Positions 35,759 through 42,572 of a stretch of 64,000 nt of DNA are shown piece by piece. The number at the start of each line of letters is the position of its first letter. The first letter of the stretch is position 1. The notes beneath the pieces are model-generated. The model was not told where the DNA came from and did not search any database. It was given only the letters and a program-made list of their open reading frames with translations. This DNA is from an uncultured Planctomycetaceae bacterium (lineage in GTDB: Bacteria > Planctomycetota > Planctomycetia > Isosphaerales > Isosphaeraceae). The stretch covers positions 5,504,001 to 5,568,000 of the forward strand of contig CAWIAD010000002.1 in the NCBI GenBank assembly GCA_963833985.1, in the 5' to 3' direction. The position numbers were made by a program, and so were the translations under genes.

Positions 35759-36169
35759 TCAGGTCGCGGGCGCTGGATCGGGGACGTAGTACGTCTTGAC
35801 CTTGCCGCGCTCGTGCGTGGTGGAGACAACCAGCCCGAGCTCCTCGAGCCGGACCAGGCTCTCGATCACGGTGGGGCAGGAAAGCTGTGTGCGCCTCGTC
35901 AGCTCGTTGAGGCTGATCCTCACGCTGCGGTCGGGCAGGCCACCACAGGCGTCGATGACCACCAGGTAGACCTTGATGGCCTCGCCGCGGATCCGCGCGA
36001 GATAGCCGCGGTCAAAGAGCACCGTCTTGACCCAGTCGACCTGGGTCGACACAGGAGCCATCACAGGCATGTGCGGTTCAACTCCGGTACGGAACTTCTG
36101 AACGCGGCATTGCTCCGGCGATTCTCTCGACATGGTCCGTGCTTGAAAGAGAAGGTCGCAAGCGAGCAT
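35759..36169 (-). CDS. Small winged-HTH protein, paralogous to the N-terminus of the downstream initiator-like gene
   Basis: GEAIKVYLVV...ISLNELTRRTQLSCPTVIESLVRLEELGLV...KVKTYYV; start uncertain and possibly further downstream. Confidence 0.7.
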   Translation of the reverse strand: MLACDLLFQARTMSRESPEQCRVQKFRTGVEPHMPVMAPVSTQVDWVKTVLFDRGYLARIRGEAIKVYLVVIDACGGLPDRSVRISLNELTRRTQLSCPTVIESLVRLEELGLVVSTTHERGKVKTYYVPDPAPAT

Positions 36170-36193
36170 ACCACGAAATTTGCCTCCAGGGTG

Positions 36194-36221
36194 TTGACCA
36201 GCGTAAATTTTGGGTTAAGAT
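36194..36221 (+). promoter_or_regulatory. Probable sigma70 rrn promoter
   Basis: TTGACC-N16-TAAGAT; a 16-bp spacer is typical of rrn P1 promoters. Confidence 0.55.
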
Positions 36222-36354
36222 TGCCTTTGCGTCACCCAGTTCTCGATTGACTGAGACGGCCGGGGCGAGATGCCAACAGGCAGCTTGCACCGGCCGATGG
36301 CATCGGCGGAACTCGGTGAACAACGCGGCCGGTTGCGGCGTACCACTTGGGTTG

Positions 36355-36382
36355 CCGGAACCCGGCATGGCTCTTTGACAAT
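36355..36382 (+). promoter_or_regulatory. rrn leader antitermination boxB-boxA
   Basis: Hairpin tgccggaacccggca followed by GGCTCTTTGACAAT. Confidence 0.7.
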
Positions 36383-36711
36383 CCGGTTGATTGCACTCGT
36401 CAGCCAGAAAACGAGAACGCAAGAGAATTGCAAGCACACGATGGATGAGATTCATCCGTTCTGTGGTGAGAAACCCTTGAGGGGAGCCGGCGTGCGGCCG
36501 CAGCCTCGGGGCGGCCCGGCCTTCGTGGTCCGAAGCGCCTGGGCTGCCGTGGGATGGCCTGCACAGGACCGGCAGCAAGTTCCCGGCAGAACGGTTGTGA
36601 AACCGCCTTGCCAGGGGCTTGATGCGACCAGTTTTTTTTCCTCAACCTTTCGAGGTGAGGGTTGATCCGCGGCCGGGGCTCTCGGGCTCTGCGAAGCGGG
36701 TTGACATCATT

Positions 36712-38222
<1,511 letters not shown>

Positions 38223-38397
38223 CTAAGGACAACCTTGGAAAACCGGCCTGAGAGTTCACCCAGGAAGTGTTGCCGCCAGGCTTCGCTTCCCGAACTCGAT
38301 AAGGCCACGTCGGCACCATCCCCGGACCTCGATCCCGCGGCACGCCCGCCGGCTCCCCTTGGGGGTTTGCACCACAGTTGGCTTGTGACGTTTCGTG

Positions 38398-38688
38398 ATG
38401 GCTCTGAAATTCGAGTGGGACCCCGTCAAGGCCGCCTCCAACCTGACCAGGCATGGAGTCGGTTTCGACGAGGCGTCCACCGTCTTCGATGATCCGCTGG
38501 CCAGGATCTTTTATGATGAGGACCATTCGATCGAGGAGACGCGCGAGATCCTTGTGGGCCACTCGATTCTCCGCCGGCTGCTGCTCGTGAACTTTACCGA
38601 GCGAGGCCCCGGCCTCGTGCGGATCATCAGTGCCCGGCCGGCGACGCGGAAAGAACGTACAGCCCATGAAGAAGACCAAGGTGGGTGA
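38398..38688 (+). CDS. brnT: BrnT-family ribonuclease toxin, inside the 16S-23S ITS
   Basis: MALKFEWDPVKAASNLTRHGVGFDEASTVFDDP...DEDHSIEETREILVGHS...LLLVNFTERG..VRIISARPATRKER matches the BrnT pattern FEWD..K...N..KHG..F...RIISAR. Confidence 0.92.
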   Translation: MALKFEWDPVKAASNLTRHGVGFDEASTVFDDPLARIFYDEDHSIEETREILVGHSILRRLLLVNFTERGPGLVRIISARPATRKERTAHEEDQGG

Positions 38689-38902
38689 CCGCCCGCTGGA
38701 GCCATCGGACGAGCTTCGTTCCGAGTATGCGTTTGACTACACGCAAGCCCGGCCGAATCGGTTTGCGAGCCCGAGCGATCGAGATCGGCTGGTGGTGGCC
38801 CTTGACCCGGATGTGAGCAAGGTGTTCACCACCGCGGAGTCGGTCAACAGCCTGCTCCGGGCCCTGATCGAGACGATGCCCAAGAGTTCTGGACGACCGT
38901 AG
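38666..38902 (+). CDS. Cognate antitoxin (BrnA-like, C-terminal RHH-type region)
   Basis: DELRSEYAFDYTQARPNRFA...VVALDPDVSKVFTTAESVNSLLRALI; overlaps the toxin by 23 nt. Confidence 0.82.
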   Translation: MKKTKVGDRPLEPSDELRSEYAFDYTQARPNRFASPSDRDRLVVALDPDVSKVFTTAESVNSLLRALIETMPKSSGRP

Positions 38903-38996
38903 CAATCAACCGAGATTTCTTTCCCCTCGCCTCTGGGCGCGGGGCGGTGCCCTTGTCGCAGGGCCTCGCCCCCTGGCCAGCAGCTTGGCCGGGAGT

Positions 38997-39029
38997 GGCG
39001 GAGCAATCCGCCGCGTGTTCCTTGACAAT
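38997..39029 (+). promoter_or_regulatory. Spacer boxB-boxA before 23S
   Basis: GCAA-tetraloop hairpin ggcggagcaatccgcc, then TGTTCCTTGACAAT at 39016-39029, matching the leader boxA. Confidence 0.65.
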
Positions 39030-39421
39030 TCGGTGGTTGGTCACACACGAATCAGCCAGGTCCGCGCGTGGGGCAAGATTCCGATCTTGTCGCTGCGTGC
39101 CTTGTGTTCCTACATGGACCTGGTGGAATTCACACACACCCGCGTGATCGGCGGCAGGCTTTGGCCGTGCCGGCGAGACGCGAGGGTGAGTGGCACTCTC
39201 CAACGAACAGTTTCACGGCTCTGGCCGGTGGGAAGGGGCGACGTCAGTCCAACCATCCGCGTCGGTCGGGGCTCTGAAGAAGATAACGAACCCTTACGGA
39301 TCGAATCGATGGGTCTGGCACCGGCCGTCGCGTCGCGAGACGCCGCGGCCGCACGGTCCGGACCCGAGTGAGCCCGCTGTCGGCCTGCGTCTTCTCCGGA
39401 AGCCGGAGGTCCGATCGGCGT

Positions 39422-42222
<2,801 letters not shown>

Positions 42223-42464
42223 CCCCGATCGGCCCCCCATCCCGGGAACGCCGCGGAGGTGGACTCACCGGACTCGATCCGAACAAGGGTCAGGTCCCAT
42301 CGGACTGGTGACGCCGCGTGCCCCACGCGGGCCGCGAACCCGCCACCGGTCCCTGTTCCGCGAACGTGCCCCTCACCCGGTGTGCGTGCACCCTGAAACC
42401 CAATCCGCGTGTGACCGACCATCCGCAAAGCGGCCGGCGCGCAGAAATGCGCGCCGGCCGGTTT

Positions 42465-42572
42465 TCCGGCGACCATACCGGCGGGGTCACACCCGTTCCC
42501 ATTCCGAACACGGCCGTTAAGCCCGCCGGGCCCATGATAGTGCTCAGGCGCGAAAGTCGGTGATCGCCGGAA
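42465..42572 (+). rRNA. rrf: 5S rRNA (short, ~108 nt)
   Basis: TCCGGCGACCATA...CACCCGTTCCCATTCCGAACACGG...GAAAGTCGGTGATCGCCGGA. Confidence 0.96.

Follow-up and report, generated by a model that had tools for sequence, protein, structure and literature searches.

What is a toxin gene doing between the genes for 16S and 23S rRNA? The 64-kb window, that is, the whole stretch of DNA analyzed here, contains an rRNA (rrn) operon whose 16S–23S spacer, 1199 nt long, carries two small overlapping genes on the rRNA sense strand. An earlier reading, made from the letters of the window (here, the sequence-only reading), took them for an intact BrnT/BrnA-type toxin–antitoxin (TA) pair riding on a stringently controlled rrn transcript, and proposed a dormancy switch or an addiction module that protects this rrn copy. 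The pair is real, intact, and under selection. The explanation toward which we lean is that it is a promoterless, self-maintaining passenger, lodged in a tolerant slot of the 16S processing stalk and spread by gene conversion. The slot is the loop between two leader–spacer helices, called A and B. The features are as follows, in window coordinates.

36194-36221, + strand: sigma-70-type rrn promoter, TTGACC-16-TAAGAT, the sole promoter-like site in 36000-39500
36370-36381, + strand: leader boxA-like element, present in 41/41 leaders examined with up to 4 mismatches allowed
36385-36395, + strand: helix B leader arm, just behind the leader boxA; pairs with 38901-38911
36472-36491, + strand: helix A leader arm, a probable RNase III stem; pairs with 38348-38367
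36709-38222, + strand: 16S rRNA (Rfam RF00177)
38348-38367, + strand: helix A spacer arm, left edge of the slot; pairing runs on to about 38374
38398-38688, + strand: brnT, 96 aa from ATG, predicted RelE/BECR-fold ribonuclease toxin (PF04365)
38666-38902, + strand: BrnA-like antitoxin candidate, 78 aa, with a short RHH-like C-terminus (hhalign to a Pfam-positive BrnA set)
38901-38911, + strand: helix B spacer arm, right edge of the slot
38941-38973, + strand: G+C-rich hairpin between helix B and boxB
38997-39012, + strand: spacer boxB hairpin
39017-39028, + strand: spacer boxA-like element, mirroring the leader boxA
39380-39430, + strand: 5' arm of the 23S processing stem; pairs with 42212-42264 (-63 kcal/mol)
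39422-42223, + strand: 23S rRNA (Rfam RF02541)
42465-42572, + strand: 5S rRNA (Rfam RF00001)

The operon fits a linked rrn unit with antitermination. It has a promoter, both boxA elements, 16S and 23S stems, and a spacer below 1500 nt, the limit for linked operons given in the relevant part of 10.1101/705046, and rnc, nusB, and rho are all present in the genome. The description of the spacer as about 1.2 kb long and free of tRNA, with boxB and boxA intact, is borne out. Indeed, the entire window contains no tRNA gene; in the source genome, G000 (10.16 Mb, 2 contigs, 96% complete), tRNA-Ile(GAT) and tRNA-Ala(TGC) lie as free-standing genes on the other contig. This genome has three rrn copies. 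Their spacers are 100% identical, so the pair belongs to all three copies and not, as had been supposed, to this one alone. The promoters, leaders, and 23S–5S trailers differ among the three, and similar -35/-10 pairs lie upstream of the other two.

Assignment of the first gene as a BrnT toxin is secure at the profile level: it matches PF04365 (BrnT_toxin) over model positions 1-77 of 77 with 87.2 bits (cut-off 34.5) and E 9e-25. The product aligns with PDB entry 7vd7_A (E 4e-13) and weakly with Brucella abortus BrnT, 3u97_A (E 0.1). A review reports, in the part that treats the B. abortus enzyme, that D6, E7, K9, R41, and E78 are needed for its RNase activity (PMC5086665). Through the weak 3u97_A alignment, D8, K11, R49, and E86 of the window protein correspond to D6, K9, R41, and E78, and all four are the same in 12/12 aligned spacer copies. 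At the E7-equivalent position the window BrnT has P; the residue varies in the family and is A in 7vd7_A. The ribosome dependence of BrnT is given as unknown in the pertinent section of PMC11980606. The three spacer genes are the only full-length brnT found in the source genome. Elsewhere in the genome lies a broken free-standing brnT fragment (G000:C2:137100-137560), behind which a partner gene of the related subfamily begins.

The second gene overlaps brnT by 23 nt, and its stop codon touches helix B. Thus, the two display a trait of type II TA modules, namely two small, co-oriented, overlapping genes found together, and a tblastn relative of the partner occurs at 79 of 169 brnT loci, across many phyla. 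The window partner has no Pfam, NCBIfam, or PADLOC match above cut-off, and one of 36 members of its family matches PF14384, weakly (E 0.017). When the family is compared with profiles of Pfam-positive BrnA, hhalign returns 96.6% (E 5.4e-10, 53 columns). The target comprised 17 BrnA partners, of which 13 of the 13 scanned pass PF14384, and as a set these match CopG. The window's family has about 9 fewer residues between the two helices. A monomer model places helices at 48-53 and 57-70 with pTM 0.35 and no fold match; the partner has no sequence match in the PDB, and its atlas matches are limited to unnamed clusters. The sequence-only reading called this gene the usual small partner of BrnT. 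The BrnA likeness stands by profile match; membership in the Pfam BrnA family does not. From its sequence relationships, the protein probably acts like BrnA.

Where in the spacer does the pair lie? The strongest duplex between leader and spacer joins 36465-36519 with 38323-38374 (-82 kcal/mol) and is helix A in extended form. At least 17 of the 20 helix A pairs form in 40/40 leader/spacer pairs (1 of 41 being without the anchor), and the bases are mostly invariant. Helix B has at least 10 of 11 pairs in 38/41 leader/spacer pairs versus 6/41 in a control window, a count inflated by picking the partners as best matches and drawn from kin that are not independent. Columns 4, 8, 10, and 11 of helix B change on both sides, and its mean number of Watson–Crick pairs is 10.3 with own partners versus 8.4 with swapped ones. 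Both are conserved leader–spacer helices, and helix B clearly covaries. The loop between them measures 9-164 nt when it holds no genes and 533-688 nt when it does. Just outside this slot, the G+C-rich hairpin at 38941-38973 is kept in much of the family and is perhaps a processing signal.

The same slot accepts other cargo. In genomes G069 and G070 it holds an unrelated pair of genes encoding 107 and 94 aa, with omega values of 0.087 and 0.143, and in other lineages it holds palindromic fillers, one of which matches the source genome 34 times. Because brnTA, an unrelated pair, or palindromes can occupy the loop, the slot is a tolerant insertion site and is not specific to the BrnT toxin. The G069/G070-type pair also exists away from rrn operons, with both genes kept at 3 of 4 non-rrn loci (L027-L029, e.g., L029:1775-2392). 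Its 107-aa product is zinc-ribbon-like by weak matches; the pair has no PADLOC match, the second gene has no usable atlas match, and the 21 homologs of the first gene are mostly unnamed. It is possibly an undescribed TA-like module. Two ideas about the slot edges were discarded. A TCAC-N9-GTGA-like motif upstream of brnT was considered as an antitoxin operator; this was dropped, since the half of the motif that is conserved forms pairs with the leader and is also present in empty spacers. Integron attC sites or target-site duplications were rejected by eye: the "boundary motifs" are helix arms.

How widespread is the arrangement? From relatives in the family, Isosphaeraceae, we took 80 of 139 full 16S ends (60 genomes), which together with the source genome give 61 genomes and 81 spacers, of median length 713 nt and with a tRNA in none. 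Five genomes have an intact pair, one a frameshifted toxin, four relics, and one a possible remnant (G025, judged by eye alone); 50 show no trace. The intact pair lies at the same spot in 3/3 copies of the source genome, in 2/3 copies of G010, and in 2/2 copies of G071, which belongs to another genus (56% identical). G011 carries it in 2/2 copies, one antitoxin having a compensated frameshift, and G012 in 1/2 copies; the two G012 16S genes differ by 1.25%, and therefore this bin may be mixed. In G009 brnT is frameshifted and the partner intact. Among the relics, G013 has an internal deletion that fuses the first two brnT codons to the end of the partner, G024 and G044 retain partner fragments, and G046 retains a broken toxin and no antitoxin. 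Within the window's genus, whose members have 16S 96.7-97.8% identical to that of the source genome, eight genomes have an assembled rrn operon: five carry the pair, one a relic, and two nothing. A 16S tree puts the carriers and the relics together in a single clade of 36 rows; the exception is the relic of G044, whose 16S is 89% identical. This relic (L074, spacer on G044:C15) is a decayed partner gene that sits in the same slot in one of the three copies. Over 41 nt it is 90% identical to the G010 copy, and it may have been transferred by recombination acting through the helix arms, which are conserved.

Metagenomes extend the pattern. Of 80 metagenomic homologs, the 7 closest, at 74-81% identity, all lie next to spacer sequence. 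The other 73 have no rRNA in their flanks. The same holds for 10/10 other family loci and for 78 of 79 genome loci, the odd one out being a duplicate of a stretch counted before. Beyond the family, 16S genes were sampled from other families of Planctomycetia: in 40/40, neither a 23S gene within about 2.8 kb nor a brnT was present; these were picked from 150 of 357 matches listed, and one stretch ends at a contig end. In this respect the 81 family spacers, all linked and without tRNA, differ from every one of the sampled relatives. Unlinked rRNA genes are reported for the phylum (10.1101/705046) and linked operons are described for Isosphaeraceae (PMC12603096), in the portions of those papers that concern rRNA operons. 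Linkage of 16S and 23S in the family could be secondary.

Selection has acted on both genes. In codon models, brnT has an omega of 0.074 (11 sequences, 87 codons), 150 log-likelihood units above the model with omega=1; the partner, with 12 sequences and 64 codons, has an omega of 0.137, 79 units above it. These models omit the overlap codons, G071, the near-duplicate G010 copy, frameshifted copies, and the cut brnT of L176. Pairwise dS between brnT of the source genome and genus-level copies is 0.9-1.8, and the close pair L170/L172 has dS 0.25 and dN 0.005. Because close pairs are constrained, selection acted in place and not solely before insertion. The protein trees neither prove nor exclude one insertion. 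A BrnT tree (72 distinct rows of 79; non-spacer rows with at least 54% identity over at least 85 aligned residues) has four changes of the spacer label and three non-spacer rows, on long branches, inside the group. A concatenated tree of 33 chosen modules groups all nine spacer modules, with weak support (60.7/78). With respect to copy dynamics, G010 has two filled copies and one empty copy, and the 16S genes of the filled and empty copies compared are identical.

How might the pair be expressed? Upstream of brnT in the source genome we found neither an own operator nor a sigma-70 -10 element. Specifically, there is no TAnnnT -10 hexamer from the 16S end to the brnT ATG in the source genome, G010, or G012, and none in the 72 nt tested upstream at 5 further spacer loci. 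Among GC-rich free-standing homologs, the hexamer occurs in 14/44 sense sequences, 3/44 antisense sequences, and 8/44 coding controls; among all 133 free-standing homologs it occurs in 74, versus 58 expected from shuffles and 52 in antisense. The contrast between free-standing and spacer homologs is thus modest, which makes for a weak promoter test, and the search covers promoters of the sigma-70 type alone. The claim that no terminator separates the pair from 23S survives. Scanning 36000-39500 gave two sites versus 3.3 expected from shuffles, one inside brnT and the other the boxB hairpin itself, and we see no convincing terminator in the spacer. With no sigma-70 -10 element before the ATG and no convincing terminator, brnTA is likely expressed by read-through from the rrn promoter, much as the sequence-only reading proposed. 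No clear Shine–Dalgarno sequence precedes brnT (-3.2 kcal/mol). Its absence says little, since the motif is rare among constrained starts of this genome (23% of 132, versus 14% in shuffles). Matching two DNA contig sets to the locus gave short pieces alone, one of them, of 243 nt, over the genes; as DNA, these have no bearing on expression.

The favored account, a self-maintaining passenger, combines these elements. A type II brnT–brnA module would have settled on the 3' strand of the 16S processing stalk, in a loop that tolerates changes in size. Because no own promoter was found, we infer that the pair is transcribed within the pre-rRNA. By the established course of rRNA processing, RNase III would then cut helix A and the 23S stem and free a fragment of the spacer, about 1 kb long, that would begin a few tens of nucleotides before the brnT AUG. 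This fragment would serve as a bicistronic mRNA in which brnA is translationally coupled through the 23-nt overlap, and the antitoxin would hold the RNase neutralized. Gene conversion between rrn copies would spread the module and keep the copies alike. Loss of the antitoxin alone would be toxic, and the escape routes would be decay that strikes the toxin first, or an event that deletes or replaces the slot as a whole. In E. coli, conversion of spacers from one rrn copy to another has been measured, according to the relevant results of PMC8022953. For a passenger that is nothing but selfish, constraint persisting to a dS of 1-2 is long-lived, and it may reflect a gain for the host. The notion of an addiction module guarding this particular rrn copy fares poorly because 3/3 copies are filled here, G010 mixes filled and empty copies, and several lineages have lost the pair.

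An alternative, which we regard as unlikely, is that the pair is a domesticated sensor of rRNA synthesis. Here, the pair would have given up both promoter and autoregulation and so depend on transcription of the rrn operon: once this ceases, on starvation or phage shut-off, the short-lived spacer mRNA would vanish, antitoxin would fall, and BrnT would halt translation or abort infection. This is the dormancy switch of the sequence-only reading minus ppGpp. Stringent control, which that reading invoked, fails because no ppGpp synthetase was found. PF04607 (RelA/SpoT synthetase) has no match in the source genome, while a control search was positive in 11/14 genomes; the TIGR00691 cut-off is reached in 0/14 genus genomes; and the HD-domain ORFs of the source genome are short ones alone, with no synthetase. 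Bacteria of the PVC group are reported to be without long RSH enzymes in the passages of PMC3153485 that treat them. Stand-alone HD_4 ORFs resembling small alarmone hydrolases do occur, at G000:C2:221267-221650 and 2031728-2031928 (L337 and L338). In a lineage with no ppGpp synthetase, some other coupling device is conceivable, and the strong, lasting constraint on the toxin, the fixation of the pair in all assembled copies of the source genome, G011, and G071, and the lack of a -10 element of its own would all suit a sensor. There is also precedent in the type III systems AvcID and ToxIN, which transcription shut-off activates, as the pertinent experiments in PMC10511110 describe. Against the sensor stand its absence without trace from 50 of 61 family genomes, its loss or decay in G013, whose 16S is 99.8% identical to that of the carrier G010, and the readiness of the slot to accept unrelated cargo. 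Moreover, type II antitoxins are reported to withstand degradation while in complex, and the toxin is often not released under stress, in the account given in the relevant section of PMC10643148; PADLOC has no model for BrnT. In its broadest and equally improbable form, the proposal is that, in a lineage without ppGpp, the stalk loop is a promoter-free expression slot whose mRNA is released by processing and whose content is copied by gene conversion, with the BrnT pair as the sensor of rRNA synthesis that frees an RNase. If so, a translation-blocking RNase would be released whenever ribosome production stops, be it through starvation or phage takeover.

It is also quite unlikely, in our judgment, that the pair is driven by a promoter of its own, either cryptic or of an alternative-sigma type, that overlaps the arm of helix A, and that it is autoregulated like other brnTA modules, the rRNA site being incidental. 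Canonical BrnA represses its own promoter, as stated in the parts of PMC11980606 and PMC5086665 on regulation, and -10-like hexamers do precede brnT in G011 (TAAACT) and G071 (TAGAGT). At one metagenomic locus (L170:1-304), what stands ahead of the pair and the 3' spacer bears no relation to the 5' spacer; an insertion sequence may have landed just before brnT. In the source genome, by contrast, just 24 nt separate the base of helix A from the brnT ATG, and the sole conserved upstream motif, CTCAC/CACC, belongs to helix A and pairs with leader GTGAG. The lack of a -10 hexamer there, in G010 and G012, and at the five further loci likewise speaks against a private promoter.

We consider it very unlikely that the locus serves as an anti-addiction device, in which a steady, high supply of antitoxin neutralizes the BrnT toxins of incoming mobile elements. 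In its favor, free-standing brnT matches occur in 56/121 family genomes, and G009, G024, and G044 possess antitoxin sequence with no intact toxin. This proposal predicts poorly that the toxin is the more constrained of the two genes, that the relic of G046 is a toxin without antitoxin, and that the antitoxin relic of G044 has three stops.

Finally, an assembly artefact or dead pseudogenes can be dismissed as extremely improbable. Collapsed-repeat polishing could in principle yield three identical spacers, and sequencing errors or decay may account for the frameshifts seen in brnT of G009 and in one brnA copy of G011. But metagenome contigs L172 and L175 span 16S–TA–23S, L171, L174, and L176 join TA to 23S, and L173 joins 16S to TA. 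The proteins of these metagenome copies differ by 19-26%, omega being far less than 1, and the three copies of the source genome have distinct promoters, leaders, and trailers.

How does this locus compare with known systems? It resembles canonical BrnTA in its toxin-first order, in four of the five reported RNase residues, and in a small partner homologous to RHH BrnA; it differs in that the partner belongs to a shorter subfamily outside Pfam, in that no own promoter or operator was found, and in its location inside an rRNA precursor. Protein genes between 16S and 23S are known from Campylobacter, in which operons for using glucose and for an oligopeptide transporter are inserted in the spacer. 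In the account that the relevant text of PMC6371046 gives, those genes occupy some copies and were horizontally acquired, and they are multi-gene metabolic operons said to disrupt the rrn operon. In the source genome, a 0.5-kb toxin pair sits in the stalk loop of all copies, with boxA and both stems intact. Small selfish-type genes on the same strand are also found in rRNA spacers of CPR bacteria, whose rRNA loci include homing endonucleases (PMC8172020, in the sections on those loci); the window has no homing nuclease, and its rrn operon is multi-copy where theirs is single-copy. The spacer tRNA genes of E. coli, swapped between rrn operons by gene conversion according to the same part of PMC8022953, which cites Harvey and Hill 1990, are a further parallel. 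Like them, the pair lies upstream of the spacer boxA, would be cut from the precursor, and would spread between copies; unlike them, it is protein-coding, in a family with tRNA in 0/81 spacers. As for AvcID and ToxIN, they offer a model for how transcription loss can free a toxin, but in the description consulted (PMC10511110) they are type III systems with an RNA antitoxin and their own promoter, whereas the window pair is type II-like. Among the listed titles and abstracts of a literature search, made largely in open-access papers, we found no TA pair in a 16S–23S spacer. BrnTA modules and protein genes in spacers are known; this case is set apart by the toxin cargo, its stalk-loop position, and its fixation in all copies.

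With this arrangement a toxin gene comes under the promoter that is usually the strongest in the cell, inside an RNA that is normally untranslated, and selection has preserved it there across several species. It offers two natural tests: whether excised bacterial pre-rRNA spacers serve as mRNAs, and whether a chromosomal type II TA module without autoregulation persists by selfishness or by benefit. More broadly, a two-helix slot with varied cargo suggests a route by which small genes enter every rrn copy and perhaps cross lineages by recombination in the conserved flanks. Existing 16S–ITS–23S amplicon data can be screened for such cargo. The spacer also has a second site of small insertions: a short palindromic repeat at window positions 39068-39095, beyond boxA in the spacer's 3' portion, has 7-26 matches genome-wide at 3-5 mismatches.
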